Source: a virus
Strand: one strand, 5' to 3'
Virus record (IMG/VR): IMGVR_UViG_3300022602_002120
Coordinates: 64,001-128,000 of that record
Length of the DNA stretch: 64,000 bases
The position numbers and the translations under genes were made by a program. Below the pieces are notes generated by a model. That model ran no database searches. It was given only the letters and a program-made list of their open reading frames with translations, and was not told the DNA's origin. Positions within the stretch are counted from its first letter, which is position 1. Every line of letters begins with the position of its first letter. Shown here one piece after another: positions 29,423 through 55,878 of the stretch.

Positions 29423-29737
29423 ATGAGCGACTTAGACAAACTTACCCAAGAAATACGTTTAGCCACTGACTATCAAGTCAATAAGCGTATCTTACGAGAA
29501 AAAATTCAAACTGACCTACAGGTAACACATAACAGCGGACTGTTTAAGGTTAACCCAGAGCTGATAGCGTTCCTCAACGCCTGGGACTCTAGTGAATTAT
29601 ACCTAGAAGATACCTATAACAACCCAATCAAAGTAAACAGACTTGAGTTTCTAGAACTGTGTAAACAACATTATCAAATGGTAATGAACACATGGCATAT
29701 TCAACATGATGAAATCAAACGTGCCCGCAAAGTCTAG
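29423..29737 (+). CDS. Hypothetical protein, first gene of the large operon
   Basis: 104-aa ORF after the promoter; overlaps the next gene. Confidence 0.6.
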   Translation: MSDLDKLTQEIRLATDYQVNKRILREKIQTDLQVTHNSGLFKVNPELIAFLNAWDSSELYLEDTYNNPIKVNRLEFLELCKQHYQMVMNTWHIQHDEIKRARKV

Positions 29738-30515
29738 AGGTGTACTACTATTTGCATTTAACACAGAAAAGACCAGCTATGTTACTATAGCTGAACGTTC
29801 TGCACGCATTGTTAAACACACCACAGGGCTTCCTGTTACCTTGGTTACAGAACAAGGAACCACCGCAGAAGGGTTTGACAACATAATATATGTTGGCAAT
29901 GAACTTAAAAATTACAAAGTGGGCGAGCAAGGAAGCTGGCGTAATGGCGACCGTTGGCGTGCATATGAACTAAGTCCCTACGATGAAACTATCCTAATAG
30001 ACAGCGACTATCTAATGTTAGATGATAATTTACTTAAGTTATTAGAACAAGACTTTGACTATCGCATAATGTCATACAATAATAAACCTGCCACAGCCTG
30101 GACTCTAAAGATGGGCTTGTTTAGTCATGATTACCTTTGGGCTACTGTAGTTCTATTCCGCAAAACAGCTCGTACTAAACTGTTATTTGATCTAGTTGGG
30201 CGCATTCAACGCAATTATCTATACTATGTGAAACTCTATCACATGCGTGAAGGTAACTTCCGCAATGACTATGCTTTTACTATTGCTAACAATATCCTAA
30301 ATGGCTACGATCTAAGTTTTGGTCAAGGTATAGTTACACCTATGCTGACATTTGCTGATGTAACTACTAGCATTACAGTTAAAAACTCTATGCTAGTGGT
30401 CAAAGAACGTGAAAAAGCCTATGTAATACCTCGTCAGAACATACATGTTATGGACAAAGGATATTTACTCAGCGATAACTTTGGCAACTTTGTGGATACT
30501 GTATGCGCAGAATAG
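29706..30515 (+). CDS. Glycosyltransferase-like protein (GT-A fold)
   Basis: SRGVLLFAFN..YELSPYDETILIDSDY (DxD motif); paralogous to 30503. The true start may be the GTG near 29719. Confidence 0.6.
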   Translation: MMKSNVPAKSRGVLLFAFNTEKTSYVTIAERSARIVKHTTGLPVTLVTEQGTTAEGFDNIIYVGNELKNYKVGEQGSWRNGDRWRAYELSPYDETILIDSDYLMLDDNLLKLLEQDFDYRIMSYNNKPATAWTLKMGLFSHDYLWATVVLFRKTARTKLLFDLVGRIQRNYLYYVKLYHMREGNFRNDYAFTIANNILNGYDLSFGQGIVTPMLTFADVTTSITVKNSMLVVKEREKAYVIPRQNIHVMDKGYLLSDNFGNFVDTVCAE

Positions 30516-31369
30516 CTCAACATCAAGCACAGCAAGGTTTCTTTACCATTGCGCAGAATACTCCAGATGTAGATTATCTACAGCTAGCATACCTACAGGC
30601 CTTGAGCATTAAGTTAACCATGCCAGATAGCCTATATGCTGTGGCTGTTGATAAACCAACACTAGAATCTGTAACTGACCAGCATCGCCAGGTATTTGAC
30701 TATATTATTACCATAGAGCATGATGAAGCTGTCAATGACGATTGGAAGTTACGCAATGAATGGCAAGTGTTTTTCCTAACTCCGTTTAAAGAAACTATTA
30801 AATTAGAAAGTGATATTGTGTTTACCCGTAGTATTGCTCATTGGTGGCATACCTTTAGATTAAAGAACATTGTACTTAGTCAAGGATGTAAAGATTACTA
30901 TGGTAAGAACAGCATGGATAGAACATATCGCCAACTGTTTGATGATAATCAATTACCTGATGTATATAATGGACTGATGTATTATCGTTATAGCCCGGAA
31001 GCCGCTGAGTTCTTTTGGTACGCACGACACATATTTCAAAACTGGAATATAGTTAAAGACCTATTAATTAAGTGCTACGACGATGAGCCTACTACAGATG
31101 TAGTGTATGCTCTAGCGGCTAAGATAGTAGGGGTAGAAACCTGTACTATTCCTGGTGTAGATTTTATTAACTTTACACATATGAAGCCTGCAATTAACAA
31201 ATTTAGTTCAGCATTACCATGGCATGAATTAGCTGTATACGAACTTGAATTACCTATGGTTAGAATTAACAACATTAACCAATACCACCCTCTACATTAC
31301 CAAGATAAGAGTTGGGCCTCAGATGAACTAATCAAGGAATACGAAGATGGATTGGCAAGAAGAGTTTAA
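30503..31369 (+). CDS. Glycosyltransferase-like protein (GT-A fold)
   Basis: QGFFTIAQN..FFLTPFKETIKLESDIVF aligns with the previous gene. Confidence 0.55.
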   Translation: MRRIAQHQAQQGFFTIAQNTPDVDYLQLAYLQALSIKLTMPDSLYAVAVDKPTLESVTDQHRQVFDYIITIEHDEAVNDDWKLRNEWQVFFLTPFKETIKLESDIVFTRSIAHWWHTFRLKNIVLSQGCKDYYGKNSMDRTYRQLFDDNQLPDVYNGLMYYRYSPEAAEFFWYARHIFQNWNIVKDLLIKCYDDEPTTDVVYALAAKIVGVETCTIPGVDFINFTHMKPAINKFSSALPWHELAVYELELPMVRINNINQYHPLHYQDKSWASDELIKEYEDGLARRV

Positions 31370-31700
31370 TGCGGCTATAGCTGCAATGGCAATCGTGCCA
31401 GAACCTATAGAATATCGCTTGCATTATGATGATGGCGGTAATATTATTATGTGTACGATGCAGCAACACCCAAAAGACACAGAATACTTGGTTGTAGATA
31501 AAGAAATCTACGAAAATTATGCTCGTTATCGTGTAAATGTTGATAAAAAACGTCTAATAAAGATTGACATAAACCCAGGGGTGAGTGTACAATTAAAACG
31601 TAGCAATCAAGGATTTAAAACTGTAAAACATCATGCTGGCTTATTAATAGAGCCAGATGAAACCTATGAAGATATAGAATACTATGACACAACTTATTGA
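31347..31700 (+). CDS. Hypothetical protein
   Basis: 117-aa ORF overlapping both neighbours. Confidence 0.6.
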   Translation: MDWQEEFNAAIAAMAIVPEPIEYRLHYDDGGNIIMCTMQQHPKDTEYLVVDKEIYENYARYRVNVDKKRLIKIDINPGVSVQLKRSNQGFKTVKHHAGLLIEPDETYEDIEYYDTTY

Positions 31701-32577
31701 TATAGCTGACTTGGACGTAATTTACCTAACATATGACGAACCTAATAAAGAACAAAATTGGATTAAAATTCAAAACATGGTACCATGGGCAAAAAGGGTT
31801 GACGGGGTTAAGGGATCTGACGCCGCACACAAAGCGTGCGCTGACATCAGTGATACAGATCGTTTTGTGGTCATTGACGGTGATAATATTCCCGATCCAC
31901 AATTTTTTAACCTTCAGCTTGCTCTCGATGATACTAGTAGCGGATGCGTATTTCGCTGGCGTGCTCGCAACTTTATTAATGGGCTACAGTACGGAAACGG
32001 AGGTCTAAGTTGCTGGACTAAAGAATTTGTCTATGCAATGAAAACGCATGAAGCCACTGACGGTGATAGTAAGAATGATGTAGAGTTTTGTTTTTACCCT
32101 AACTATTGGGCCATGGCAGATTGTTATAGTACAACTTACCCAAATCAAACACCATTTCAAGCATGGAGAGCAGGCTTTAGAGAAGGTGTTAAGATGTGTT
32201 TAGATCGAGGCACTAAGCCTAGCCTACAAGAGTTTGAAAGTAAAGTGCATCATCGCAACTATGATCATTTGTGTATTTGGCAAACAGTAGGAGCAGATGT
32301 GGAGCATGGTTTTTGGGCAATATATGGCGCACGCTTGGGCACATGTTTAACAATGCTAGAAGATTGGGATTATCGTAAGGTGCAAGATTTTGATGAACTG
32401 TCTTTGTTGTGGGAAAAATATAAAGATCCTCAGCCTGGAACGAGTACAGAATACGGCATGCGCTTACGCCAACGTCTAGGCTTGCCTATTGTAGACATGG
32501 ATGTAGAACAGAGTCGTTTCTTCAAACATCATTATAAGAGTAATTTCCGTAATCGTGGAATAATGGAGAGAGAATGA
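31684..32577 (+). CDS. Glycosyltransferase-like protein (GT-A/GT2-like)
   Basis: DVIYLTYDEP..KRVDGVKGSDAAHKACA..FVVIDGDN (DxD); homologous to the C-terminal half of 51189. Confidence 0.55.
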   Translation: MTQLIDIADLDVIYLTYDEPNKEQNWIKIQNMVPWAKRVDGVKGSDAAHKACADISDTDRFVVIDGDNIPDPQFFNLQLALDDTSSGCVFRWRARNFINGLQYGNGGLSCWTKEFVYAMKTHEATDGDSKNDVEFCFYPNYWAMADCYSTTYPNQTPFQAWRAGFREGVKMCLDRGTKPSLQEFESKVHHRNYDHLCIWQTVGADVEHGFWAIYGARLGTCLTMLEDWDYRKVQDFDELSLLWEKYKDPQPGTSTEYGMRLRQRLGLPIVDMDVEQSRFFKHHYKSNFRNRGIMERE

Positions 32578-33428
32578 AATTACTCAATGACTCTTTAACT
32601 AACTATTTTGATTTTAAATTTAACATGGATTCTGCGGGGAATCAGGTAAGTTGGTGCCCTTATAATTTTGTGGACAATAATAAAAAGAACCTTGTAATCA
32701 CCATTGGTGATTCTTGGACCTGGGGCGCTGATATATGTGATGGCGATGCTACAGAACAAAGACTTAAGGATGTATTTGGAGCAATTATAGCAAATGAACT
32801 TTCAGCTGATTTTTTAAATTTAGGGCAAAGCGGATCTTGTAATTTTCATATACTGCGACGACTAGAAGAACTCGACGCTATCATACCACTCCTCGAATAC
32901 GACAAAATTTTAATAATTTGTGTGTACACAGAGGCATGCAGATCTATAGATAGCGAGTATGATAGAAAAATTGATTATATAAAGTGGTTTAAGAATAATA
33001 ATTTTCAAGATATATTAAAATATCACAATGGTCTATTTCAAGAAACTATTGTTGATCTAGAAAAGAAGCACCCGCATGTCAAATTAGTAATTGGCAATAA
33101 CTTTGTAGAACCAATTGGCATGGATACACGTTTAAATATATTGTCTAAAAATTGGGTAGAAGTATATAATGAACAAGCCATTCATGGCGAATATGTCAGA
33201 CCCTGTTATGTAATGAGCCATTGGGTTTTTGACAAAATTAGAGATTTTATTATTTTGATGTACCCTGATATTGACCGTGTTGAATTTAATAATTGGATGA
33301 TAGGGCTGATAGAAACAGCAAAAGACAGAAAAGAATTTACAATAAATCCAACATATTTTAAAGGTATAAGCCATCCTCTTAAGCTAGGACACAAAATATG
33401 GGCAAATTATATTCTTGAGAATTTATAA
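32574..33428 (+). CDS. SGNH/GDSL-like hydrolase or acyltransferase
   Basis: TIGDSWTWG, NLGQSGSCN, C-terminal SHPLKLGH. Confidence 0.65.
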   Translation: MKLLNDSLTNYFDFKFNMDSAGNQVSWCPYNFVDNNKKNLVITIGDSWTWGADICDGDATEQRLKDVFGAIIANELSADFLNLGQSGSCNFHILRRLEELDAIIPLLEYDKILIICVYTEACRSIDSEYDRKIDYIKWFKNNNFQDILKYHNGLFQETIVDLEKKHPHVKLVIGNNFVEPIGMDTRLNILSKNWVEVYNEQAIHGEYVRPCYVMSHWVFDKIRDFIILMYPDIDRVEFNNWMIGLIETAKDRKEFTINPTYFKGISHPLKLGHKIWANYILENL

Positions 33429-34396
33429 TGAAATATACATTAGAACTTGAGAATGATATATTATGGAATATTATTCCATTGGTTGCTTTTTTAAAAAATA
33501 ACGAAGGCAAAGATATTGAATTAACCGTAAATCAAGAATCTCATTGCCTACGGTTTTGTCGAGTGTATGAACTATTAGATATATTTGAGTTTAACTCTGT
33601 GACAATTTTTACCCGTAACGCATTAGAATATCATGACAAGTATAGAATTATGAATAATAATTGTTCTTGTTCTTGGAATTATTGGTTAGATAACGGAGCA
33701 ACCTACTTTAATCAAAAAACAGATTATAGATGGAACGGAAATAAATTATTTGGATGCTTTTATGGAAGACCGACAGCTGCCAGACTAGGCATAGCAAGTC
33801 ATTTATATAAAGAATATGTTAATAAATCTTTATTGTGTATAAAATTTAAAAATATTAACGAAGATGACCGAAAATTATTTGAGTTAGAACGGTTATATTC
33901 TTGGCACCCAGAAATGTTGCATCTATTATCTAATTTAATTGATAATAATATTAATCAATATTACAATTTTCCAGCATATAACTATGCCAGCGGAGATTAT
34001 GATTTTAATCATCCATTAAACGAGTTATATAGTGATATTTTTGTTGATATAGTAGTCGAAGCACATAATTTAGGTAATAGCTTTTATCCGACAGAAAAAA
34101 TAGCTAGAGCTATATTATGTAAGAAACCGTTTATTGTAATGGCTACAAAAAATTATTTGTATTATTTAAAACAAATAGGGTTTAAAACATTTACTGACTT
34201 GTGGGATGAAAATTACGATTTTCTCTATGGAAAAGATAGATACTATGCTATAATACAATTAATTGACAAATTAGCATCGATGAGTCAAAACGAAATACAA
34301 CAATTACATGAAAAAAGTCAGGATATAGTTGAACATAACTATAATTTATTAACTTCACTTTCATTTAGTAAACTTATAGTGAGAAAGCATGACTAA
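33428..34396 (+). CDS. GT-B glycosyltransferase-like protein (GT10-like TEK motif)
   Basis: DIFVDIVVEAH..FYPTEKIARAILCKKPFIV..GFKTF. Confidence 0.5.
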   Translation: MKYTLELENDILWNIIPLVAFLKNNEGKDIELTVNQESHCLRFCRVYELLDIFEFNSVTIFTRNALEYHDKYRIMNNNCSCSWNYWLDNGATYFNQKTDYRWNGNKLFGCFYGRPTAARLGIASHLYKEYVNKSLLCIKFKNINEDDRKLFELERLYSWHPEMLHLLSNLIDNNINQYYNFPAYNYASGDYDFNHPLNELYSDIFVDIVVEAHNLGNSFYPTEKIARAILCKKPFIVMATKNYLYYLKQIGFKTFTDLWDENYDFLYGKDRYYAIIQLIDKLASMSQNEIQQLHEKSQDIVEHNYNLLTSLSFSKLIVRKHD

Positions 34397-35801
34397 ATCA
34401 AAATTTATGAGCGCAGCAGAAGAAATGAAAGACAAACTAGGTCCTAGTCTTTGCTTGGCTAAATGGCAACAGGTAAGCCTACACCTACCAACAGGACTTA
34501 ACAATAGCTGTTACCATCCCCCATTACATGAGATTGATGCGGCACCTTTAGTGTTTCATCCTAGTGCCTTACATAACACAGCATATAAGAAAGAACAGCG
34601 TAAGAAAATGCTAGAGGGCACTCGTCCTAAAGAGTGTAACTACTGCTGGACCATGGAAGATGCTGGACACTTAAGTGATCGTCACTATCGTAGTGGTGAA
34701 CCCTGGGCGGCAGAACATTATGACACAATTAAAGACCTACCCTGGGATGCTGACGTTACTCCTAGTTATGTAGAAGTAAACTTCAGTCACGGCTGTAATC
34801 TAGCTTGCTCTTACTGTAGCCCACAGTTTAGTACAGAATGGCAGAAAGATATTGATCGTTGGGGTGCTTATCCTACAAGCAAACCTCATAATGCGCCTGA
34901 ACACTTCCAAGGTCGACGCAAACCTATTCCAGTTAAAGATGATAATCCTTATGTAGATGCGTTTTGGTCTTGGTGGCCTGAACTGTATCCTAAACTAAAA
35001 CATTTCCGTATGACAGGTGGTGAACCTCTAATGGACAAGAACACGCATCGTGTGTTCGACTATATCCTAGCGGCACCTAAGAGCGACTTACACGTAGATG
35101 TTACAAGTAACTTTAGCGTAGAGCCAGAACTGTTTAACAAGTATATAGACAAAGTTAAGCAGTTATGTGAAGGCACACGCATTGAACACTTCATGCAGTA
35201 TGTAAGCCTTGACACTGGTATTCCAGAACATGCTAGTTATATTCGTCGTGGCTTAAATCCTAGTAGGGTAGTTGACTATACTACTCGTTTCTTAGAAGAA
35301 ATTCCAGGACGCAATAGCCTAACGTTTATTATTACCATGAACAATCTTAGCATTTTAGGCCTAAAACGCTTGTTAGAAGAAATCTTGTTTTTGCGTAAAC
35401 AATATAGTTCAACTTATCAACGTGTTTGGTTCGATACTCCTGTGCTACGTACACCTAGTTGGCAGAGTCTACAAATACTTCCAGAAAGCTACACTGTGAT
35501 ATTAGCTGATGTAGTCAAGTATATGAAACAGAATCGATTAGACGAAAACAGTGATCGTTTTGATGGTTTCAAAGACTATGAAATACAACGCATGGAACGT
35601 GACCTAGATTGGATGAAGAAAGGCAAGAAACTCAGCGACAAGTATCTACATGAACAACGTGCTGACTTTTACCGTTTCTTCAATGAATATGACAAACGTC
35701 GTGGTGCCACTACCAAGGATGCCCGTGATGAAACATTCTTAGATGTGTTTCCAGAAATGAAAGAATTTTGGATGGAGTGCAAATATCATGCCGAAAATTA
35801 A
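34389..35801 (+). CDS. Radical SAM enzyme with N-terminal twitch/SPASM-like domain
   Basis: CNLACSYC and GGEP; N-terminal CLAKW..SCYH..CNYCW. Confidence 0.9.
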   Translation: MTKSKFMSAAEEMKDKLGPSLCLAKWQQVSLHLPTGLNNSCYHPPLHEIDAAPLVFHPSALHNTAYKKEQRKKMLEGTRPKECNYCWTMEDAGHLSDRHYRSGEPWAAEHYDTIKDLPWDADVTPSYVEVNFSHGCNLACSYCSPQFSTEWQKDIDRWGAYPTSKPHNAPEHFQGRRKPIPVKDDNPYVDAFWSWWPELYPKLKHFRMTGGEPLMDKNTHRVFDYILAAPKSDLHVDVTSNFSVEPELFNKYIDKVKQLCEGTRIEHFMQYVSLDTGIPEHASYIRRGLNPSRVVDYTTRFLEEIPGRNSLTFIITMNNLSILGLKRLLEEILFLRKQYSSTYQRVWFDTPVLRTPSWQSLQILPESYTVILADVVKYMKQNRLDENSDRFDGFKDYEIQRMERDLDWMKKGKKLSDKYLHEQRADFYRFFNEYDKRRGATTKDARDETFLDVFPEMKEFWMECKYHAEN

Positions 35802-36861
35802 TCTGCATACCTTTAATAATCTTCAAGATATAAAATTTTTTGATATTTGTTATAATGTCGCAAATATTGTGCCACACGATGAAATTCATGAGGTGCTCAG
35901 ATGTGATAATCTCAATTATCCTATACTTAATAAAGTAAAAATTATGCAAAATCTTACTCCTATTAGACAATACCTACGCCAAAGTACGAGTAATAAATTA
36001 ATTGTAATTGATTACTTAGAGGGGAATAACTCTATTATGTCGTGGCTAGGTCAGGAAAGAATTGCAGAATATGTAAGATCTAATCAATTGATTATTATAT
36101 CATCGGGGGAATTTGAAAATGGTATTTTTTTAAATTTAGATTTTTTTCTAGGACATATACACAGTACTTATAACCAAGCAATTGCATTAAATACATTTGA
36201 CAAAATTTTTAATCAACTTAATAAACCTTATAAATTTTTATGTTTAAATAAAGCAAAAAGACCTCACCGGGTAGAATTATTAGAATTATTAAAAAATTTA
36301 AATCTATTAGACACCGCACTTTGGAGTGCATTATATGATAATCAGACTATTCCGATGGAATACAACGACTATTTTAATGAGCGAAAGAAAGAAACTACCA
36401 TCAATCAAACTAACCACGATAATCCCTGGATAGATGGTCTTTTAGTTCCGGATCTATATATCGATACATATTTTTCTGTTGTCACTGAGACAAATTTTGA
36501 AATTCCAAGGTGCTATCGTACAGAAAAAATATATAAACCACTATTGATAGGACATCCATTTATTGCGGTGTCGGGATATCATTTTTATCAAGGGTTACAT
36601 AAGTTAGGGTTTAAAACTTTTGGTCATCTAATAGACGAGAGCTTTGATGATATTTTAAATAATAATGATCGATTAGTTAGAATAGCAAACACTATTAACA
36701 ATTTATGTAACAGCAATCTAGTAGAATTTTTAAAAGAAGCAAAACCTATATGTGAATATAATAGAAACTTATACTTTGAATTATTGGGGACAGATCCTTT
36801 AAGAAAATACAATTCTTTAATCAATTTTTTCAATGAACTAATAAATGCCGAAAATACATAA
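35788..36861 (+). CDS. GT-B glycosyltransferase-like protein (GT10-like TEK motif)
   Basis: FLCLNKAKRPHR..YFSVVTET..RTEKIYKPLLIGHPFI..GFKTF. Confidence 0.5.
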   Translation: MPKINLHTFNNLQDIKFFDICYNVANIVPHDEIHEVLRCDNLNYPILNKVKIMQNLTPIRQYLRQSTSNKLIVIDYLEGNNSIMSWLGQERIAEYVRSNQLIIISSGEFENGIFLNLDFFLGHIHSTYNQAIALNTFDKIFNQLNKPYKFLCLNKAKRPHRVELLELLKNLNLLDTALWSALYDNQTIPMEYNDYFNERKKETTINQTNHDNPWIDGLLVPDLYIDTYFSVVTETNFEIPRCYRTEKIYKPLLIGHPFIAVSGYHFYQGLHKLGFKTFGHLIDESFDDILNNNDRLVRIANTINNLCNSNLVEFLKEAKPICEYNRNLYFELLGTDPLRKYNSLINFFNELINAENT

Positions 36862-45959: not shown

Positions 45960-46026
45960 ACTAGAAATAGCATACCGCAAGAAGCTTAAAGAGCTTCGCA
46001 AAAGAGATCCTTTTATTTACAAATAA
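45925..46026 (+). CDS. Small basic 33-aa protein (not in the ORF track)
   Basis: MNWLKNLINRVKLEIAYRKKLKELRKRDPFIYK; GAGGAA Shine-Dalgarno upstream; TAATG stop/start overlap with 46026. Confidence 0.75.
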   Translation: MNWLKNLINRVKLEIAYRKKLKELRKRDPFIYK

Positions 46027-46664: not shown

Positions 46665-47443
46665 TTGCAGGTGGCGATAGTTTTACCTATGGCAGTGAAT
46701 TGTCTGATTGCTTTGTATTGAGTGAATCTTCTACGCCCAAGGAAGTGCATAGTCAAAGTACCTATACAGCGTTAATTGCTAAAGAACTAGATTTAGAATA
46801 TATCTGTGCGGCCCATCCTGGTAATAGCAATAGTGCTATTAGACGAAGTGTAATGAACGCATGTGAAAGTAACACTAACATAGAACAAGTGATAGTTACT
46901 TGGAGCTTCCCTGGCAGGTACGAATTTAATTTCAACAACTCATGGGAACAAATAAATCCATGGAGTGTTGCTGATGATGCAGAAAAAACTATAAAAAAAG
47001 ATTTTCACATAGATAATCCTATAGTGTTTCAACATCATTTGGATAAACTAAAACGTGAACAAGCATTAGGTATAAGTGACTTTGCTAGAATATTTTATAG
47101 CAAGATAGGTGGATTTGAATATTGGGAAGTTTATAACAGTCTACTAGACATTGTATTACTTGAACAATATTTAAAAATAAAAGATATTCCCTACTTGTTC
47201 TTAGGAGTAGATGAGTGTATACTAATAAATGTTAATAAACATGAACATGATGTGAATATAAAGACTCTATACAACCAAATTGATATGACTAAATGGTATT
47301 GGTTTCCGAAACATAAAGGATTTTATACCTGGGCAAGAGATAATAAGTTTCCTTTTGCCACAACACATCCGCGCGAACCAGCACACATTGAAGCGGCAAA
47401 TTTAGTATATGAACATCTGAGATATATTGGTAATATTAGGTGA
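46652..47443 (+). CDS. SGNH/GDSL-like protein
   Basis: AGGDSFTYG, AHPGNSN, THPREPAH. Confidence 0.65.
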   Translation: MGCLIAGGDSFTYGSELSDCFVLSESSTPKEVHSQSTYTALIAKELDLEYICAAHPGNSNSAIRRSVMNACESNTNIEQVIVTWSFPGRYEFNFNNSWEQINPWSVADDAEKTIKKDFHIDNPIVFQHHLDKLKREQALGISDFARIFYSKIGGFEYWEVYNSLLDIVLLEQYLKIKDIPYLFLGVDECILINVNKHEHDVNIKTLYNQIDMTKWYWFPKHKGFYTWARDNKFPFATTHPREPAHIEAANLVYEHLRYIGNIR

Positions 47444-48093
47444 TTAATAATATACTAGCCATTGGCGATAGTTATACCTATGGATCGGAACTTGAAAATC
47501 CAGGGCGTGATTCTTGGCCGATGCAATTGGCAATTAAGTTAAACAGCTATGTAACTAACTTAGGTATGCCTAGTAGTAGTAATGATAGAATCTTCAGATT
47601 GGCAATTGAACACACACTTGAATTACAATATGATTTAGTAATTTGCGCCTGGACTGAAGTGTCTAGACTAGATTTATGGGCTAATGACCGGGAGTTTCAA
47701 GTAACATCAGCTAGTGTTGATTATCATGCTAAACAGTATCCTTGGATTAAAGAATATTATGCTAGACACTATGATGACAGACATAGTACTAAAACTTGGT
47801 TAACCAGAGTGTTAGCACTACAAGAATATTTTAAAAATAAAGGTCAGCGATACATCTTTGCTAACATGCAACCTAACAATGAGTATCGCGAACATTATAC
47901 AAAATTAGGCCTAACTAAATTTATAGACCAAATTGATACTGATAATTATTTAGGTTGGCCGGAAGGCGAAGGTATGCACGCTTGGATAGGTGATGCAGAA
48001 ATTGGGTCATGTGGCCATCCACTTGAGCTTGGACATAAACGTATAGCGGAAAAGTACTATGAACATATTAGGAATATCGGCTGGCTTTCATGA
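47440..48093 (+). CDS. SGNH/GDSL-like protein
   Basis: IGDSYTYG, NLGMPSSSN, GHPLELGH; GTG start overlapping the upstream TGA. Confidence 0.65.
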   Translation: MINNILAIGDSYTYGSELENPGRDSWPMQLAIKLNSYVTNLGMPSSSNDRIFRLAIEHTLELQYDLVICAWTEVSRLDLWANDREFQVTSASVDYHAKQYPWIKEYYARHYDDRHSTKTWLTRVLALQEYFKNKGQRYIFANMQPNNEYREHYTKLGLTKFIDQIDTDNYLGWPEGEGMHAWIGDAEIGSCGHPLELGHKRIAEKYYEHIRNIGWLS

Positions 48094-49555
48094 TGCCGCT
48101 GTTACATTAATCGACGAACAAGGCAAGATCTTGTTCGCAGGACATGCTGAACGTTACAGCAAGATTAAACATGACAGTGTATTAAATGTCCCTTTGATCA
48201 GAGATGCGTTGCGATATGGTAGTATAGATCAGATTGCCTACTATGAACGTCCATGGGTTAAAAAGACTCGTCAACTATATGCAGGTCAATGGAGTGAACT
48301 TAAAACTCCGTGGACTGTTGCAGGTATATTAAAAGCTCAATTACCCAAGTTACATTTACATAAATTACCAATTAAGTCGTATAATCATCACTTATCACAT
48401 GCGGCGGCAGGATTTCAAACAAGCTCATTTACAGATGCCACTGTAGTGGTTATTGATGCTATCGGTGAGTGGGATACTATTAGTATTTGGCATGCGTATT
48501 TTGATGACCACGGCAACGCTAAGTATCAAAAACTTTGGGGACAACAATATCCACATAGTATTGGACTAATGTATTCAGCATTTACCAAGTATGTGGGATT
48601 AAAACCCATGGATGAAGAATACATTTTAATGGGCATGGCTGGTTGGGGTAAACAGATCAGATGGGATGAAATAGAACAGCTTAAAGATAGTATATTAGGT
48701 GATGAAGGTAATTTTACATTCAAACATAACTTCCATCTAGGATTACCTGGTAAGTTACCTGTAGATTGGTCTGATGAAAACATAGCATTTGCAGCACAGT
48801 ATATAGCAGAAGATTTAATTGCCAGCGTAATGATGAAAGCAAGTAAATTAGGCTATAGTGAAAATTTAGTATACTGTGGCGGTGTAGCACTTAATTGTAG
48901 TGCGAATAGAATATTAGGGGAATATTATGATAACATTTGGATTATGCCTAATCCTGGCGATGCTGGGTCTAGCCTTGGCGCGGCTGCAATGGCTTTGGGC
49001 AGAAGGTTGGTTTGGAAAGATGCTTTCCTTGGCTTTAACATTCCTGGTCGTTATCCTGTTAAAGATATCATTTCCGAGTTAACCACAAATAAAATTTGTG
49101 GCGTGGCGAGCGGGCGGGCTGAGTTTGGCCCGCGAGCCCTTGGTAACCGTAGTTTATTAGCGGACCCTAGAGGTCCAGACATTAAGGATCGAGTAAATGA
49201 AATCAAACGTAGACAAAAGTTTAGACCTTTTGCACCTGTTATACTTGAGGAACTGGTACACGAATATTTCGATATGCCTCCTGGTTGGGATCGTAGCCCT
49301 TATATGCAGGTCGTGGCTCGTTGCCTGCATCCTAACCAGTTTCCTGCTATTCTACATGTTGATGGTACATCTCGCGTGCAGACAGTACCAAAAGATGGCA
49401 GTGGAATCAGACAACTCTTAGAACAATGGTATACTTGGACAGGATGTCCTATGCTGCTTAACACCAGCTTAAATGTCAGAGGCGAACCAATGGTTAATAA
49501 TCGTAAAGATGCAGATCGGTTTGAAAGACTATATGGCATAAAGGTTATGTCGTGA
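48059..49555 (+). CDS. O-carbamoyltransferase (NodU/CmcH/TobZ family)
   Basis: GFHDAAV..ERYSKIKHD, HHLSHAA, VIDAIGE, GRAEFGPRALGNRSLLADPR, FRPFAP, HVDGTSRVQTV, LLNTSLNVRGEP. Confidence 0.92.
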   Translation: MNILGISAGFHDAAVTLIDEQGKILFAGHAERYSKIKHDSVLNVPLIRDALRYGSIDQIAYYERPWVKKTRQLYAGQWSELKTPWTVAGILKAQLPKLHLHKLPIKSYNHHLSHAAAGFQTSSFTDATVVVIDAIGEWDTISIWHAYFDDHGNAKYQKLWGQQYPHSIGLMYSAFTKYVGLKPMDEEYILMGMAGWGKQIRWDEIEQLKDSILGDEGNFTFKHNFHLGLPGKLPVDWSDENIAFAAQYIAEDLIASVMMKASKLGYSENLVYCGGVALNCSANRILGEYYDNIWIMPNPGDAGSSLGAAAMALGRRLVWKDAFLGFNIPGRYPVKDIISELTTNKICGVASGRAEFGPRALGNRSLLADPRGPDIKDRVNEIKRRQKFRPFAPVILEELVHEYFDMPPGWDRSPYMQVVARCLHPNQFPAILHVDGTSRVQTVPKDGSGIRQLLEQWYTWTGCPMLLNTSLNVRGEPMVNNRKDADRFERLYGIKVMS

Positions 49556-50337
49556 AAAACTATTGGGAATTAGGAGCAACATTAGATTTAGGAACCTATC
49601 CCCGTAATCAAGAGTTATCGTTTAGCCTAAGTGATCTAGACAATGAAGAACGTTTTAATTCTTTGCCGCCTGGCAATTGGTCTAAGGATAGTTTTACCTA
49701 CAAGTATAATAGCTGCGGATTTCGTAGCTGTGAATTTGATCTCGACGGAATAAATCCTGTAATACTTACATTAGGTTGTAGTCATACAGTAGGTGTGGGT
49801 GTGCCACAGCACAATAATTGGCCTGAACAATTTGGTAGTAGATATTTTCCTGAACATAAGGTATATAATGCTGGTCTGGGGGGTGCGGGGGCAGATACTA
49901 TTGCACGATTAGCAATTAACCTAATTCCTATTATTAAACCTAGTATAGTTGCAGTCTTATGGCCAAGTTTATATCGGTTTGAAACATATGAAAATGGTGC
50001 TGTGTTTAACGGCGCTTGGACTATGGAACAAGACAATCTACAGTACGAGGACAACACAGCATACAATAATCAGACTAAAAATAAAACAATTTTAGAGTTA
50101 CTACAGCAGGTTTATCAATTTAAACTGTTAAGTATAGATTGGGATGACACTGTACAAAAAGTTTACAATACAATTTCTTGGACTAAAGGCCGTGACGGTG
50201 CACACTTTGGTGTAGATTGGCATCAACAGATTGCTTATGATTTTAATTTACAATATTGTAATCCTGATGACTTTGTGTTAAAATATACAAATCCAAAAGT
50301 CTACTGGGACAAATACAAGGATAGGAAAATTAAATGA
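49552..50337 (+). CDS. SGNH/GDSL-like protein
   Basis: LGCSHTVG, NAGLGGAG, DGAH (DxxH). Confidence 0.65.
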   Translation: MKNYWELGATLDLGTYPRNQELSFSLSDLDNEERFNSLPPGNWSKDSFTYKYNSCGFRSCEFDLDGINPVILTLGCSHTVGVGVPQHNNWPEQFGSRYFPEHKVYNAGLGGAGADTIARLAINLIPIIKPSIVAVLWPSLYRFETYENGAVFNGAWTMEQDNLQYEDNTAYNNQTKNKTILELLQQVYQFKLLSIDWDDTVQKVYNTISWTKGRDGAHFGVDWHQQIAYDFNLQYCNPDDFVLKYTNPKVYWDKYKDRKIK

Positions 50338-50759
50338 AAATATTAGTTATGGGCCTACCAGGAAGTGGAAAATCAACCTTGGCCGAACCGTTGGCTAATC
50401 TATTAGGTGCTGTGTGGATCAATGCTGATAAAATTAGAGAACAATACAACGATTGGGATTTTACATCAGAGGGAAGACTGCGCCAAGCTCAACGCATGAA
50501 GTATCTAGCTGACGGGGTTGTATTAGCTGGTAAGATTGCTGTGGCTGATTTTGTCTGCCCAACTGAACAAGCACGTGAATATTTTGCTCCAGACTATACT
50601 GTTTGGATGGATACTATTCGCGAAGGCCGTTACGAAGATACTAACAAAATGTTTGAACCGCCAGCAGAATGTAACTATCATGTTAAAGAATGGTTTAGCG
50701 ACACTGATAAAGAATTAATGAAAGTGGTAATGAACTACATACAAAGAACTAGCAAATGA
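50334..50759 (+). CDS. cysC: Adenylylsulfate (APS) kinase-like P-loop kinase
   Basis: GLPGSGKST P-loop; INADKIR..DFTSEGRLRQAQRM..VADFVCPT. Confidence 0.75.
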   Translation: MKILVMGLPGSGKSTLAEPLANLLGAVWINADKIREQYNDWDFTSEGRLRQAQRMKYLADGVVLAGKIAVADFVCPTEQAREYFAPDYTVWMDTIREGRYEDTNKMFEPPAECNYHVKEWFSDTDKELMKVVMNYIQRTSK

Positions 50760-51196
50760 AACCAAAATATAAACTAGCACACATGAAGGCCGCACATCTC
50801 TACGCTGAACTAAGCACAGCACGTAGATTAAAAGTGGGCGCACTTATTGTCAAAGACGATAGAATTATTAGTATCGGCTACAATGGTATGCCTAGTGGAT
50901 GGGATAACGATTGTGAGTACAAATACTACAGCATAGGTAATCCCAATGACTTTGAATTAAAAACTAAACCGGAGGTCCTACATGCTGAAACCAACGCTAT
51001 TGCGAAACTTGCTAGAAGCACTGACAGTGGTGATAATGCCACTTTATTTGTTACTCATAGTCCCTGCCTGGATTGCGCCAAACTTATTTACCAGTCCGGT
51101 ATCAGACAGGTCTACTACGCTACTGATTATCGCGATGATTCCGGGATACGTTTCCTTCATGATTCGGGTGTCACAGTGGAAAAAATAGATGTTTGA
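50756..51196 (+). CDS. dCMP deaminase (ComEB/T4 cd-like)
   Basis: VGALIVKD..ISIGYNG, HAETNAI, PCLDC zinc ligands. Confidence 0.9.
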   Translation: MKPKYKLAHMKAAHLYAELSTARRLKVGALIVKDDRIISIGYNGMPSGWDNDCEYKYYSIGNPNDFELKTKPEVLHAETNAIAKLARSTDSGDNATLFVTHSPCLDCAKLIYQSGIRQVYYATDYRDDSGIRFLHDSGVTVEKIDV

Positions 51197-52505
51197 TGTT
51201 TTTATAATGGACCTGGGCGGCAATGAAGACAATGTACAGAGTCTTGTACAGCGTTTTCCGCACGCTCGAGTGGTAAGATACTACGATAATCACTTAGCCA
51301 CGTTAAAACGCTGTATTTCACGTTGTAGAACACCTTATGCTTGGGTACTTGCTAGTGTTTGTGACTACAGTAACTTTGATTTTGACTACCGAGCTGTTCC
51401 GTGGGAAGCCTATCAACTACACTGTTGGCATAGTGATCACGAGAAGTTCGGCGACACCTTCCTGGTGAACGTAAGTGAATTTAATAAGCAACAGGATATT
51501 CCTTTACTGGAATGGTATAAGGAAGTTAATTGGCATTATCCGGGTGTACCTAGATTGCCTGTACCTGTTGTTACATACATCAGTGATGACCTAGTTGAGG
51601 TAGTCAAGGCTACTAAATTTGATACTCCATATGTCCTATTCAAACGTGACACGGACTCAACTGTAAACTTTGCGCCTATTTTATGGCGAGATCGAAGTGT
51701 ACATACCTTTAACAAGGCAAACAGTGTATCGTTAGTACCCCGTGAAATTTCCGCACATTTAAAGCATCAAATCTACGATTATCCACATATTTTGAAGCAA
51801 AAAGACTGGTTTTTAGGCGATAATAACCTCGATATTATCTACATCAGCAACGGAGAACCGCAGGCAGAACAGTGGTATGAACACTTATTATCAGTGGTAG
51901 CGGCTAGTGGTGCTACCAATTGGGTACGTAGAGTTAAAGATGTTAATGGACGTAGTGAGGCATATAAAGCTGCAGCTAATGCCAGTCAAACAGATTGGTT
52001 CTTTACTGTGTTTGCTAAATTAGAAGTAGTAGCAGACTTTGATTGGTCTTGGCAACCAGACTATCTACAAGAACCTAAACACTATATCTTTAACAGTCGT
52101 AATCCTGTTAATGGATTGGAATATGGACACATGGGCATTATTGCCTACAACAAGCAACTAGTACTTGATACAGATGAACATGGATTAGACTTTACTCTAA
52201 GCAAGCCACATGCTGTGGTCCCTGTATTAAGTGCTATTGCCCACTATAATACCACACCCGAACTAACATGGCGCACAGCATTCCGTGAAGTGTTAAAACT
52301 TGTAGATGATGTAGAAAAGACTGGAAGTATCGAAAGTCGTTATCGTTTAGATGTTTGGCTCAATGAAGGCGAGCATTGGAGCACGCAAGGTGCAACTGAT
52401 GCTGTTGAATACTACAATAATGTTGCTGGTGATATGGATAAACTCTTACTGAGTTTTGAGTGGGCTTGGTTGAAAGAATACTACTCTAAGAAGTATACTG
52501 TTTAA
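51189..52505 (+). CDS. Two-domain glycosyltransferase-like protein
   Basis: The C-terminal half DIIYISNGEP..RRVKDVNGRSEAYKAAA..NPVNGLEYGHMG..AWRTAFRE-like aligns with 31684. Confidence 0.55.
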   Translation: MFDVFIMDLGGNEDNVQSLVQRFPHARVVRYYDNHLATLKRCISRCRTPYAWVLASVCDYSNFDFDYRAVPWEAYQLHCWHSDHEKFGDTFLVNVSEFNKQQDIPLLEWYKEVNWHYPGVPRLPVPVVTYISDDLVEVVKATKFDTPYVLFKRDTDSTVNFAPILWRDRSVHTFNKANSVSLVPREISAHLKHQIYDYPHILKQKDWFLGDNNLDIIYISNGEPQAEQWYEHLLSVVAASGATNWVRRVKDVNGRSEAYKAAANASQTDWFFTVFAKLEVVADFDWSWQPDYLQEPKHYIFNSRNPVNGLEYGHMGIIAYNKQLVLDTDEHGLDFTLSKPHAVVPVLSAIAHYNTTPELTWRTAFREVLKLVDDVEKTGSIESRYRLDVWLNEGEHWSTQGATDAVEYYNNVAGDMDKLLLSFEWAWLKEYYSKKYTV

Positions 52506-53601
52506 TAGCATCAACTACAGCTTCAACTTCACTGTCTGACAGTTCTGGATAGATAGGCAAACTTAGGCAGGTGCGACTAAACTGTTCAGCACCTTCTAAC
52601 GCTGTGTAGTCAACTTCAAAGCCAAATGCCACATTAGATAAGTGTAAGGGTCTTTTGTAGGTAATCCTAGTTTCGATTCCTGCTTCTCCAAGGAATTGAT
52701 TCATACCATAACGTTCACGATGATGAATAACATACTTACTCCACGCATGTTCTACATTCATGTCTACACTAGGTATAGTTACATGTCCATCTAGTTCTTC
52801 TGTGTAGTATTCGGCGATTTCTTTCCTACGTTTTTGCCAAGCATCGAAGTATTTTAACTTAATCAGCATCTGTGAACAATCAACTTCTGACATCTTGCTG
52901 TTGGTACCTGAGTTGATATTGTCATTACCTTTGCCATTGTCGTGAAAGTCATTGACCTGTTCCCAGATCTCAGGATCGTCAGTGAGTATCATGCCACCCG
53001 ATCCATAGTTGTTTAGATTTTTTGTAGGGTCAAAGCTCAAGCAACTGATAGTGCCTAGCTTGCCACTTGGTACACCTTTCCAGTAGGCACCAAATGATTG
53101 TGCAGCATCTTCTATGATGGGAATATTATTCTCTGCCCACATCTGTCTATACATGGTTAATTTGTCATAGTCGATGATGTTACCAAATAAGTTAACATAC
53201 ATCACAGCGGCAATCTCATCATGATCCACTGGTATCTTATTTAGATCTATTAGACCGGTAATGGGATCTACATCACAGAACACAGGGTCAAAGCCTGATT
53301 CTATTACTACGTTGAGTGTAGCAATAAAACTCTGTGCTGGAATTAGTACTTTGTTACGAGTCTTATCGTGTATACAGGCCGCACGTAGACTAAAGATCAA
53401 GGCCTGTGTACAACTGCCTACTGCGCAGGCATACTTGCGTTCGGTCATTTTTTGAATAGTTTTTTCAAACAGAAAGGTATAGTCACCGTCAAGGACTTTT
53501 CCAGAAGAATATACATGATCTGTTGCATCAAGTATTTCTTCTTTGATACTAACGTATTGTCTATCTACGCCATAGAACGGGATTTTCGTTGTACCAGTCA
53601 T
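52486..53601 (-). CDS. DegT/DnrJ/EryC1/StrS PLP-dependent sugar aminotransferase
   Basis: IIEDAAQSFG, SFDPTKNL (PLP Lys), GGMILTDD, LSLPIYPEL. Confidence 0.92.
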   Translation of the reverse strand: MTGTTKIPFYGVDRQYVSIKEEILDATDHVYSSGKVLDGDYTFLFEKTIQKMTERKYACAVGSCTQALIFSLRAACIHDKTRNKVLIPAQSFIATLNVVIESGFDPVFCDVDPITGLIDLNKIPVDHDEIAAVMYVNLFGNIIDYDKLTMYRQMWAENNIPIIEDAAQSFGAYWKGVPSGKLGTISCLSFDPTKNLNNYGSGGMILTDDPEIWEQVNDFHDNGKGNDNINSGTNSKMSEVDCSQMLIKLKYFDAWQKRRKEIAEYYTEELDGHVTIPSVDMNVEHAWSKYVIHHRERYGMNQFLGEAGIETRITYKRPLHLSNVAFGFEVDYTALEGAEQFSRTCLSLPIYPELSDSEVEAVVDAIKQYTS

Positions 53602-54517
53602 AATACTGTTTTAAGCCTTGTTCAAAGTCAATTTTAGGATCATAGCCTAGATCGTTGCGTGCCCGATCTATATTCAAACGTCCACGTTTAGGAAAACTAA
53701 GATCACGATCTAATAATTCTATAGTGCCCTGTCCTGCTACGCTAACAGCAAGTTCGGCAGCGTCCTTTAAGGTCCAAATGCGATCAGCGGAACGGGTAAT
53801 ATTATATGTATGGCCATTTGCAGCATCTAAGGTTGTAGCTAACACAATACCTTGAGCTGTGTCAGTGACATGTGTAAAGTCTAAGACTTCACTGCCACCT
53901 TTAACACGTAGAGTTTCACCACGCATGGCGGCTGTTAGGAATTTACTTACCACACGATCCTCTACATCACGTTCACCATATACAGCACTAGGGCGAACAA
54001 TAGTATAATTTAAATAACGACCATAGTCTTCTACTAGACGCTCGCCCATGAGTTTCATAATACCATATTGTCCTACTGGGCTAGGATTTTTATATTCGCT
54101 GGTATCTGATCCAAAGTCACCATAGACCATCGAACTTGAAACATAGACAAATTTTTCACAATGCTCACGTGCTATTTCTAATAGATTAGTTAGGCCATTA
54201 CACATAACATCTGTGGCTAGTCTAGGATCTTGTTCAACTACTTTCTGACGCGGAAAACTTGCTAGGTGTACAATAACATCAATTTCGTTATTAAGTACCA
54301 AGCTGTTAATTAGTGTTTGATCACGAATATCAACTTTGTATACTTCGCTAGTAATGCGTTTTTCACGTAGACTGTTTAGATATACTAGTTCACTGGTAGG
54401 AATAAAGCCATAGGTAGTAGCTGTATCAACTACAATACACTCATGTCCTTGTGCTTCTAGTAAGCGGACAACATTGTGCCCAATGAAGCCTAATCCACCA
54501 GTGACAAGATATTTCAT
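53561..54517 (-). CDS. NAD-dependent NDP-sugar epimerase/dehydratase (extended SDR)
   Basis: TGGLGFIG, SSSMVYG, YGIMK (YxxxK), RPSAVYG, DFTHV. Confidence 0.92.
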   Translation of the reverse strand: MKYLVTGGLGFIGHNVVRLLEAQGHECIVVDTATTYGFIPTSELVYLNSLREKRITSEVYKVDIRDQTLINSLVLNNEIDVIVHLASFPRQKVVEQDPRLATDVMCNGLTNLLEIAREHCEKFVYVSSSMVYGDFGSDTSEYKNPSPVGQYGIMKLMGERLVEDYGRYLNYTIVRPSAVYGERDVEDRVVSKFLTAAMRGETLRVKGGSEVLDFTHVTDTAQGIVLATTLDAANGHTYNITRSADRIWTLKDAAELAVSVAGQGTIELLDRDLSFPKRGRLNIDRARNDLGYDPKIDFEQGLKQYYDWYNENPVLWRR

Positions 54518-55552: not shown

Positions 55553-55878
55553 TTCCAGCTCTCGTCGTGATGATCAAAAAATCTTAAACAATAGTCTACG
55601 TATTCGCTTTCACTCAGGTCAGCATAGAAGCGTACCTGTTTGAACCAATCTATGGTATTACTATCAAAATCAAAATCAAGTTTAATGCTATTGCGTTCAA
55701 CCCAAGCATATTTGTCTGTTTGACTGAATTCTTTTGCTGCTTGGAAGTATAGAGCATCATTGCCCCAACCATTGTTGTGAATTTCGTTTATATGACTTCT
55801 ATATGCGAATAAGCGCACACGATGGGGTCGTTCAAACCGCCATGTTGGCTTTGATTGGCGGGTGATAGTTGTATCCAT
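55549..55878 (-). CDS. Hypothetical protein
   Basis: 109-aa ORF with an ATGA overlap. Confidence 0.55.

Follow-up and report, generated by a model that had tools for sequence, protein, structure and literature searches.

A fibre-adjacent phage operon of five N-twitch radical SAM enzymes, SGNH paralogues, a carbamoyltransferase and a near-invariant 33-residue peptide

Overall organization of the operon

The window, a 64,000-nucleotide stretch of DNA comprising bases 64001-128000 of the 188.8-kb IMG/VR viral contig IMGVR_UViG_3300022602_002120 (CheckV completeness 53%), contains a long operon located directly behind tail-fibre genes. The operon occupies positions 29423-52505 and is composed of 26 plus-strand open reading frames (ORFs) of at least 100 residues and one ORF of 33 residues, which together form 27 genes. 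Neighboring ORFs of at least 100 residues overlap by 1-77 nucleotides at 24 of the 25 junctions. The sole apparent gap, 66 nucleotides long (45960-46025), is occupied by the 33-residue ORF (45925-46026), which overlaps g18 by 35 nucleotides and has a TAATG in common with g19. The original prediction, made from the letters of this DNA, described 27 plus-strand genes without an intergenic base behind the tail fibres. This description is exact once the 33-residue ORF is counted, and the two fibre genes upstream are g30 and g29. At the other end, two minus-strand genes converge on the operon, the 3′ ends of g26 and g27 overlapping by 20 nucleotides.

An all-against-all blastp comparison groups the proteins into five radical S-adenosylmethionine (SAM) enzymes (rSAMs), eight SGNH-like proteins, three members of a family here called X, and two pairs, g02/g03 and g05/C-terminal half of g26. 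The proteins g01, g04, g17, g22, g24, and g25 are singletons. None of the operon proteins contains a clear membrane helix, the hydrophobic maxima of g10 and g23 being borderline, and the chemistry and its substrate are therefore expected to be cytoplasmic. The GC content across the operon (0.34-0.41) resembles that of the remainder of the window, and scans for promoters and terminators returned matches at chance level only. The features are as follows; occurrence refers to 40 related loci found in IMG/VR with g12 as query (49-89% identity).

29423..29737, plus strand: g01, conserved protein of 104 residues without Pfam or PHROG match (35/40 loci and Ralstonia phage RsoM2USA)
29706..31369, plus strand: g02 and g03, paralogous GT8/Nucleotid_trans-like proteins of the glycosyltransferase (GT)-A type with the motif h-h-h-D-S-D (36/40 loci)
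31347..31700, plus strand: g04, acidic conserved protein of 117 residues without family match (31/40 loci)
31684..32577, plus strand: g05, GT-A-fold protein with invariant D65-G-D67 (alignment A1, AlphaFold2 (AF2) model; 38/40 loci)
32574..33428, plus strand: g06, SGNH-like (blastp, alignment)
33428..34396, plus strand: g07, family X, with the motif E...TEK (blastp, motif)
34389..35801, plus strand: g08, N-terminal-twitch (N-twitch) rSAM (NF033640, 289 bits; 38/40 loci)
35788..36861, plus strand: g09, family X (blastp, motif)
36845..38224, plus strand: g10, N-twitch rSAM (NF033640, 286 bits; 39/40 loci)
38221..38886, plus strand: g11, SGNH-like (blastp, alignment)
38876..41360, plus strand: g12 and g13, N-twitch rSAMs (NF033640, 405 and 342 bits; 40/40 loci)
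41335..42369, plus strand: g14, family X (blastp, motif)
42359..43003, plus strand: g15, SGNH-like (blastp, alignment)
42990..44306, plus strand: g16, N-twitch rSAM (NF033640, 290 bits; 40/40 loci)
44230..45402, plus strand: g17, cyclophilin-like β-barrel with helical insert (AF2 model; 39/40 loci)
45399..45959, plus strand: g18, SGNH-like (blastp, alignment)
45925..46026, plus strand: the 27th gene, encoding a 33-residue peptide with a basic amphipathic N-terminal part and the C-terminus ...RKRDPFIYK (ORF)
46026..48093, plus strand: g19, g20, and g21, SGNH/DUF6071 paralogues (DUF6071 for g19 and g21)
48059..49555, plus strand: g22, carbamoyltransferase of the NodU/CmcH/TobZ family (PF16861, 168 bits; PF02543, 123 bits; 37/40 loci)
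49552..50337, plus strand: g23, SGNH-like (blastp, alignment)
50334..50759, plus strand: g24, P-loop kinase of 141 residues whose N-terminal half is AAA_33/APS-kinase-like (PF13671, 35.1 bits; PF01583, 33.5 bits)
50756..51196, plus strand: g25, dCMP deaminase (PF00383, 81.6 bits; 1/40 loci)
51189..52505, plus strand: g26, two-domain protein with a g05-like, GT-A-like C-terminal half (blastp against g05, 1e-14; g05 profile, 2e-17)
52486..53601, minus strand: g27, convergent DegT/DnrJ/EryC1-type pyridoxal phosphate-dependent sugar aminotransferase (PF01041, 270 bits, residues 18-366)
53561..54517, minus strand: g28, convergent NAD-dependent epimerase/4,6-dehydratase of nucleoside diphosphate (NDP) sugars, an SDR (short-chain dehydrogenase/reductase) of the extended type (PF01370, 146 bits)
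26541..28427, plus strand: g30, tail fibre with a Peptidase_G2/IMC-type C-terminal autoproteolytic chaperone domain (Pfam PF11962, PHROG tail-fibre families)
28437..29375, plus strand: g29, Ser/Thr/Gly/Asn-rich, fibre-tip-like protein of 312 residues (sequence)

Conservation of the operon among phages

Co-occurrence of the genes in relatives had been set in advance as a test of the original prediction. The core order is kept in the 40 IMG/VR loci, down to about 50% identity, and reads g30-g29-g01-g02-g03-g04-g05-...-g08-g10-g12-g13-g16-g17-...-g22 throughout. The number of SGNH and family X copies varies, each from 0 to 5 per locus. The fibre gene g30, upstream of the operon here, precedes it in 28 of the 40 loci, and g29 is located ahead of g01 in 34. 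A further scan with one genome per species gives 76 loci with g12 relatives, and metagenomes contain at least 6974 such relatives at E 1e-10 or better; relatives of g22 are found in at least 572 IMG/VR stretches.

Only three records of cultured phages match g12, namely Vibrio phages K566 and K567 and Ralstonia phage RsoM2USA. K566 has five N-twitch rSAMs in the stretch examined. In RsoM2USA the genes are divided into two pieces. The first, at 216-222 kb, contains a fibre gene, g01, g02, g03, an unrelated gene, g05, an rSAM, and a g05-like gene, and it directly follows proteins confirmed as structural by mass spectrometry; its g29 homologue likewise stands ahead of the g01-g05 block. The second piece, at 123-129 kb and about 90 kb away, carries SGNH, rSAM, SGNH, SGNH, and carbamoyltransferase genes. 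The RsoM2USA record lists all these homologues as hypothetical, and they are not discussed in the paper on that phage. Adjacency to fibre genes is thus seen in three settings, i.e. in this clade, in RsoM2USA, and in contig L149.

Three contigs assigned to metagenome-assembled genomes (MAGs) labeled Legionellales and Haliscomenobacter (L053, L057, and L058; 48-52% identical) contain the phage operon in full, with g17 and the peptide. These contigs probably derive from phages and were binned with bacterial DNA, and the labels may hint at hosts.

The N-twitch radical SAM enzymes

The five genes predicted to encode rSAMs (starts at 34389, 36845, 38876, 40182, and 42990) all exceed the curated cut-off, 170 bits, of NF033640, the NCBIfam model 'twitch domain-containing radical SAM protein' (N_Twi_rSAM). 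On the Pfam Radical_SAM model they reach 25.2-36.4 bits, two of them falling below the cut-off of 29.5 bits. Their alignment (A4) contains an invariant CX3CX2C motif (C157, C161, and C164) and an invariant G216-G-E-P, and the N-terminal domain harbors four invariant cysteines (C43, C62, C103, and C106). Pfam SPASM matches are located at residues 43-106, 7-71, and 10-85, i.e. preceding the Radical_SAM match. In a profile search of PDB sequences, positions 20-91 match the twitch domain of BtrN (residues 184-258, E 5e-6), an aminocyclitol dehydrogenase. The core of the enzymes matches TvgB (8VPO), viperin, Tes, and MoaA; the best of these matches is TvgB, an enzyme acting on a peptide that is made by ribosomes and modified after translation (RiPP). 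The model of the mycofactocin enzyme MftC (TIGR03962) gives 21.3 bits, under its cut-off of 265.

Among the five enzymes, g16 is the most conserved, with 69-86% identity across all 40 loci, and the RsoM2USA orthologue of g10 is 51% identical. Genuine bacterial members of NF033640, from Reichenbachiella and Crocinitomicaceae, score 383-407 bits, and 14 model-organism genomes used as controls contain no member. Literature searches returned no NF033640 member with a known reaction.

The genome encodes a sixth N-twitch rSAM at 5942-7189 of the contig (minus strand; NF033640, 226 bits). Two genes away, at 3863-4603, an RfaE-II-like sugar-phosphate nucleotidyltransferase is fused to a cupin, a setting in keeping with a sugar pathway. 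The surroundings of this rSAM also include a weak DUF6492 match and an adjoining UvsX/RecA-like gene.

The g17 barrel protein

The AF2 model of g17 (pLDDT 82) is a β-barrel that aligns with cyclophilins in the VIA comparison (Z 8-9, about 130-146 aligned residues) and with PF18050 in the Atlas (TM 0.63 by target). The true start of the gene is probably downstream of the GTG. Foldseek against the PDB gave no match for g17, its profile gave no meaningful match among PDB sequences, and tblastn against phages was empty. A profile search of 1.84 billion representative proteins finds relatives in 698 clusters.

Two proteins connect g17 with the rSAMs. In P0378, which is encoded between Laminin_G_3 fibre-like proteins in contig L149, a g17 domain (residues 19-301) is naturally fused to an N-twitch rSAM (333-748). 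In P0325 an unknown domain is fused to g17, and its gene follows two rSAM genes and precedes the peptide and carbamoyltransferase genes. Because of this fusion and this gene context, g17 appears functionally linked to the rSAMs and is a putative core partner of these enzymes. Complex prediction for g16 with g17 scored 0.00 and gives no verdict, neither for nor against binding.

The 33-residue peptide

Of the 40 loci, 37 contain the peptide gene; the sequences of the remaining three end before its position. The C-terminus, ...YRKKLKELRKRDPFIYK, is nearly invariant across these loci, whereas the neighboring enzymes are only 50-80% identical; the penultimate Tyr of ...DPFIYK is invariant. By sequence, no other element of the system is as conserved as the peptide. 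The original prediction had counted this gene among the 27, and it missed both the exceptional conservation and the peptide-centered reading considered below.

A search with the carbamoyltransferase gave 80 further IMG/VR loci (54-81% identity). In 72 of them a short ORF on the same strand ends in [RK][KR]RDPFIY[KR], and in 72 of the 80 N-twitch rSAMs are found within 6 kb of the carbamoyltransferase. The position of the peptide varies in detail. In RsoM2USA it has an SGNH gene on either side and is upstream of the carbamoyltransferase; in the distant contig L150 it is immediately ahead of the carbamoyltransferase; and clades without SGNH genes show the order g17, peptide, carbamoyltransferase. 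Within about 1.5 Mb of mostly bacterial loci, the DPFIY motif occurs only in phage-like contigs (L053, L057, L058, and L150), besides RsoM2USA. A weak tblastn match to the peptide in L129 was rejected as noise. The RsoM2USA peptide gene is unannotated (MG752970.1; L003:20183-20275) and lies in the gap between the coding sequences RsoM2USA_201 and RsoM2USA_200.

The SGNH paralogues and the carbamoyltransferase

The eight proteins predicted to be SGNH-like are linked to each other by blastp and share the G-x-S and the His: G9, S11, G15, and H193 are invariant, and conservation does not extend to the Asp of the usual DxxH. On the Pfam GDSL models they score 17.9-25.2 bits and stay below the cut-offs (23.6 and 32.9). 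The DUF6071 cut-off of 27 bits is passed by g19 (32.7) and g21 (47.9) only.

The predicted carbamoyltransferase g22 matches both halves of its family far above the cut-offs, which are 24 bits for PF02543 (Carbam_trans_N) and 27 bits for PF16861 (Carbam_trans_C). Its homologue in RsoM2USA is 45% identical. Orthology with NodU itself was considered and rejected, as NF041651 gives 145.9 bits against a cut-off of 1000 and covers residues 253-487 only; g22 is a family member instead.

The transferase-like proteins

The original prediction listed four GT-A-like and three GT10-like proteins. The first call holds for g02, g03, and g05 at the level of fold or language-model similarity, and it has no match among Pfam families or PDB sequences. 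In the paralogues g02 and g03 the D-S-D motif is conserved and D101 is invariant. The nearest Atlas clusters to g02 that have a Pfam family belong to PF03407/PF01501 (language-model neighbors, 0.95-0.96). Pfam scans of 41 members of the g02/g03 family returned chance matches only, and the profile of the family found no PDB sequence match. At best, g02 and g03 would act like GT-A enzymes.

The family of g05 (alignment A1, 70% mean column identity) gives an AF2 model with pLDDT 78. All 50 top VIA rows for this model are GT-A/nucleotidyltransferase folds (Z 7-8.2, 125-135 aligned residues, rmsd 3.3-3.6), a Z range that shows a common fold only and does not distinguish a nucleotidyltransferase from a glycosyltransferase. 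The GT domain of PBCV-1 A64R is among these fold matches, viral GT2/8/25 proteins in BFVD match weakly, and the g05 profile finds nothing meaningful among PDB sequences.

The GT10 call for family X (g07, g09, and g14) is unproven. Against six Bacteroidota GT10 proteins, hhalign aligns the E...TEK motif alone, at a probability of 4.6% (P 0.009). The 32 family members examined match Pfam at chance level only, and the family profile has no meaningful match among PDB sequences. A search of 5.8 billion proteins yields 1409 relatives; the 120 that are listed include no Pfam family and no bridge to GT10. The Atlas neighbors of family X (0.80-0.81) serve as a lead only.

The genes at the 3′ end of the operon

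An adenosine phosphosulfate (APS) kinase supplying the activated sulfate donor PAPS had been proposed for g24. The protein is a short P-loop kinase, and the APS-kinase call is weak. The APS_kinase match (cut-off 21.1 bits) is confined to residues 3-83 and takes in positions 5-91 of the 152 in the model, its N-terminal half; the NCBIfam APS-kinase models give 17-28 bits, all below their cut-offs of 127-244, and no sulfotransferase was found. The gene follows g22 in 11 loci.

The original inventory overlooked g25, a dCMP deaminase. Since ThyA and dihydrofolate reductase (DHFR) genes lie just downstream on the other strand and g25 is found in only one of the 40 relatives, g25 would probably belong to dTMP synthesis, outside the sugar pathway. 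The convergent g27 and g28 are, as predicted, a DegT-type aminotransferase and an NDP-sugar epimerase. Their best NCBIfam models are PseC for g27 (167 bits, cut-off 423) and an RmlB-like model for g28 (132 bits, under the cut-off); no equivalog cut-off is reached by g22, g27, or g28.

Bacterial relatives of the rSAMs

Members of the family that are truly bacterial show 32-43% identity and occur, often as arrays, in Bacteroidota, Bdellovibrionota, Acidobacteriota, and others. A Crocinitomicaceae chromosome contains three rSAMs together with a GDSL protein, a faint sulfotransferase, a UbiA-GT4-GDSL fusion, and an SxtJ-like protein, and the same locus also has a carbamoyltransferase, an epimerase, a UDP-sugar dehydrogenase, a GT2, and a PMT_2/TPR protein. 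Seven rSAMs are located with a carbamoyltransferase, UbiA, GDSL, a methyltransferase, and PhyH in a Chitinophagales contig. In a Saprospiraceae contig, two rSAMs are accompanied by an epimerase, GT4, UbiA, eight PhyH genes, WelO5, and an ABC exporter pair. The chromosome of Bacteriovoracaceae UBA6144 (L151, DIVA01000093.1) carries eight N-twitch rSAMs beside rplU, rpmA, and obg, whose best matches include all five phage types (27-53% identity). An NTP_transf_3 gene and a multi-pass membrane protein are found in the vicinity, and the locus contains no carbamoyltransferase, g17, or peptide.

The phage SGNH subfamily stands beside rSAMs in about 12 bacterial loci, and g02/g03, g05, g17, and family X do not recur beside rSAMs in the bacterial loci. 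The phage SGNH subfamily, the rSAMs, and the carbamoyltransferase thus recur in bacteria and seem to form a shared module for tailoring in envelope-glycan pathways. In the phage, this module would be combined with soluble transferases of its own, g17, and the peptide. The sugar-tailoring interpretation given in the original prediction gains strength from these bacterial homologues in envelope-glycan loci.

In the Elusimicrobia MAG CAIRTQ01 (L066-L088), arrays of N-twitch rSAM paralogues, with up to seven in each, are spread over at least 16 contigs; either the family has expanded to an extreme degree here or a giant phage was binned into the MAG.

Proposed role of the operon and alternative explanations

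On the basis of the genes observed, the families they belong to, their synteny and fusions, and the contexts seen in bacteria, we propose a substrate, an order of steps, and a destination for the pathway. The operon would be a late, fibre-linked, cytoplasmic pathway that assembles and chemically edits a carbohydrate, possibly on or with the 33-residue peptide, and delivers it most likely to a virion component; we give this proposal about an even chance of being right. In such a pathway, the GT-A-type proteins g02, g03, g05, and g26, and possibly family X, would transfer sugars from the NDP-sugar pools of the host, which the DegT and SDR enzymes would adjust. The five N-twitch rSAMs, being non-redundant, could each introduce a distinct radical edit (oxidation, epimerization, deoxygenation, or C-C/C-methyl changes) with the assistance of the g17 barrel. 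The SGNH paralogues may add or remove O-acyl groups, and the NodU/TobZ-type enzyme would O-carbamoylate the product in concert with the peptide, whose gene is just upstream. The invariant core (three GT-A-like proteins, five rSAMs, g17, the peptide, and the carbamoyltransferase) is predicted to produce a common scaffold, which the variable SGNH and family X copies would diversify between phages.

Carbohydrate tailoring best accommodates the classes of enzyme present, the loci in which the bacterial relatives occur, and an accessory gene content that varies. Judged from position, a virion component is the most likely destination, given that fibre genes repeatedly adjoin the operon and that it shares its orientation with the baseplate and fibre block. 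The product may be attached to the fibre proteins encoded directly upstream; g29 is a candidate acceptor. Several points weigh against this proposal. The near-invariant peptide is left unexplained by a pure sugar pathway, and the SPASM/twitch group of rSAMs is known above all for the maturation of peptides. The GT calls are based solely on fold, motif, or language-model similarity, family X has no demonstrable link to any GT family, and the 188-kb contig contains no Pfam match to PF00483 (NDP-sugar pyrophosphorylase), GT8 (PF01501), or GT10 (PF00852). The position behind the fibre genes is circumstantial, and a study of pelagimyophages reads similar islands as serving modification of the host O-chain (PMC7029224).

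The peptide itself might be the substrate. In a RiPP-like pathway, the rSAMs would modify its DPFIYK end, and the Tyr-bearing product would then be glycosylated, acylated, and carbamoylated. The conservation of ...RDPFIY (37/40 and 72/80 loci) extends to RsoM2USA and L150, whose enzymes show no more than 45-60% identity. That conservation is consistent with this explanation, as are the membership of the rSAMs in the SPASM/twitch group, the best PDB match of their core to a RiPP maturase, the g17-rSAM fusion P0378, as expected of a substrate-recognition domain, and the presence of GT8-like enzymes. Glycogenin, a GT8 enzyme, glucosylates Tyr. On the other hand, bacterial arrays of N-twitch rSAMs occur without the peptide, among sugar and envelope genes, and the peptide always adjoins carbamoyltransferase or SGNH genes and not the rSAMs. 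With 21 bits, the MftC model stays far under its cut-off of 265, no RiPP recognition element (RRE) or PqqD-like domain was detected, and K566 combines five rSAMs with neither peptide nor carbamoyltransferase in the stretch read. We consider a pathway centered on the peptide rather doubtful. Slightly easier to accept, though likewise doubtful, is a glycoconjugate derived from or primed by the peptide, a RiPP-glycan hybrid following a logic like that of mycofactocin by analogy, whose product may be a cofactor, an effector, or an adduct attached to the virion.

The remaining explanations place the product elsewhere or separate the rSAMs from the sugar enzymes. A role in superinfection exclusion, in which the phage would remodel the cell surface of its host while infecting it, agrees with the envelope-glycan loci in which the bacterial homologues act and with tail-fibre-adjacent islands containing GTs and radical SAM cassettes, for which host O-chain modification was favored (PMC7029224). 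It is unlikely, as the 27 genes include no membrane protein, flippase, polymerase, lipid-carrier transferase, or exporter, all of a kind that the bacterial loci have, the operon is contiguous and co-directional with the baseplate and fibre genes, and the phage looks lytic. Fibre proteins could also be modified by the rSAMs directly, through cross-links or epimerization, with the sugar enzymes forming a separate system. The SPASM/twitch class often acts on proteins, anSME being an example, and the operon adjoins fibre genes in three settings; this explanation is nevertheless quite improbable, given that the bacterial rSAM family is found among sugar enzymes with no obvious protein substrate adjoining and that the rSAM/SGNH/carbamoyltransferase block of RsoM2USA is about 90 kb from its fibres. 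Hypermodification of DNA, yielding a glycosylated or carbamoylated base, might account for the dCMP deaminase and P-loop kinase at the operon end and the adjoining ThyA/DHFR genes, and phage GTs are known to glycosylate DNA (PMC13326640). It appears highly improbable, since the deaminase is present in only one of 40 related loci, ThyA looks canonical (359 bits), the operon lies within a structural block, and the published DNA-glycosylation clusters (PMC13326640) have no rSAM, SGNH, or carbamoyltransferase.

Relation to known systems

Literature searches found no characterized phage pathway of this composition, in agreement with the original prediction. Fibre-adjacent islands of sugar genes in aquatic myophages have already been described, whereas this composition and its conserved core were not found in the literature. 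The host recognition cluster (HRC) of pelagimyophages and cyanomyophages is likewise a variable island beside the tail fibres of T4-like aquatic myophages, and modification of the host O-chain is proposed for it (PMC7029224). That description gives no pathway, rSAM family, carbamoyltransferase, SGNH protein, or peptide. Compared with the HRC, the core reported here is strongly syntenic and not hypervariable, and the phage is related to jumbo phages of the Atu_ph07/RaK2 type.

Virus-encoded glycosylation of virions is known from the fibril glycan clusters of Mimivirus and from the capsid of PBCV-1. Glycosylation of the mycobacteriophage capsid and tail tube is cited in a passage of PMC12619734. 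These systems likewise use cytoplasmic soluble GTs, a DegT-type aminotransferase, and a 4,6-dehydratase, encoded beside structural genes. In contrast to the phage operon, they are not known to have a radical SAM enzyme, carbamoyltransferase, SGNH array, or conserved peptide.

In mycofactocin biosynthesis, an rSAM-SPASM enzyme acts on the C-terminal Val-Tyr of MftA, and a GT then glycosylates the product. The likeness lies in the short peptide, whose C-terminal region contains Tyr, in an rSAM that has an auxiliary Fe–S domain, and in a later glycosyltransferase, which in mycofactocin acts on the Tyr-derived phenol. The phage differs in having five rSAMs, an N-terminal twitch domain, and a peptide that ends in Tyr-Lys and is encoded beside a carbamoyltransferase, and no MftB/RRE, MftD, or MftE is seen in it.

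The phage rSAMs share the N-terminal four-Cys domain, CX3CX2C, and GGEP with bacterial members of NF033640. The latter family exists as a curated sequence model only, whereas the phage has five fixed orthologous types in one operon. With the bacterial envelope-glycan loci (Crocinitomicaceae, Chitinophagales, Saprospiraceae, and Bacteriovoracaceae), the operon has rSAMs, SGNH proteins, a carbamoyltransferase, an SDR epimerase, and sometimes DegT in common. Those loci add UbiA, GT4, PMT_2/GT-C, PhyH oxygenases, and ABC exporters, and they are without g01-g05, g17, family X, and the peptide.

Gene islands resembling those for lipopolysaccharide have been noted beside phage tail fibres for years without a mechanism, and the operon represents a large, conserved, and widespread case. 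At its core are an rSAM family without a known reaction, the near-invariant peptide, and a barrel that belongs to no sequence family and resembles cyclophilins in fold only. A product displayed on the virion would be the first viral glycan tailored by radical SAM enzymes, and it would matter for how hosts are recognized and how defence or grazing is evaded. A peptide substrate would mean a new virus-encoded RiPP-glycan class. If the product is a peptide-glycan hybrid, the N-twitch rSAMs would constitute a new reaction class, present in thousands of aquatic jumbo phages and in envelope loci of Bacteroidota and Bdellovibrionota. A cultured carrier exists in Ralstonia phage RsoM2USA.

Genomic surroundings

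At 5031-8450 the window encodes a baseplate wedge protein with 33-37% identity to its counterparts in Atu_ph07, SCTP-2, PA5oct, and RaK2-like jumbo myoviruses, and PHROG matches upstream of the operon include baseplate hub, wedge, and tail-fibre proteins. No INPHARED phage has DNA nearly identical to the window. A single ORF of 4567 residues (8469-22172, plus strand) lies between the baseplate wedge and fibre genes, and a structural protein of 2541 residues occupies the equivalent position in RsoM2USA. The octamer TATAAATA, the T4 late-promoter word, is absent from both strands of the whole window, whereas shuffles give an expectation of 12.5 +/- 3.5, which indicates strong avoidance.

The genes for ThyA (359 bits, canonical-looking) and DHFR are located at 55832-57222 and 58845-59471, both on the minus strand, which converges on the operon. 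A ninth DUF6071/SGNH paralogue lies beyond them. A second sugar-like group is found at 141-148 kb of the contig (G000:C1:141000-148500, L133). It contains two SGNH genes, a family X gene, and a generic rSAM, which is not QueE by NCBIfam, and its adjacent ORFs 7670-8257 and 8248-8901 resemble a split DegT.

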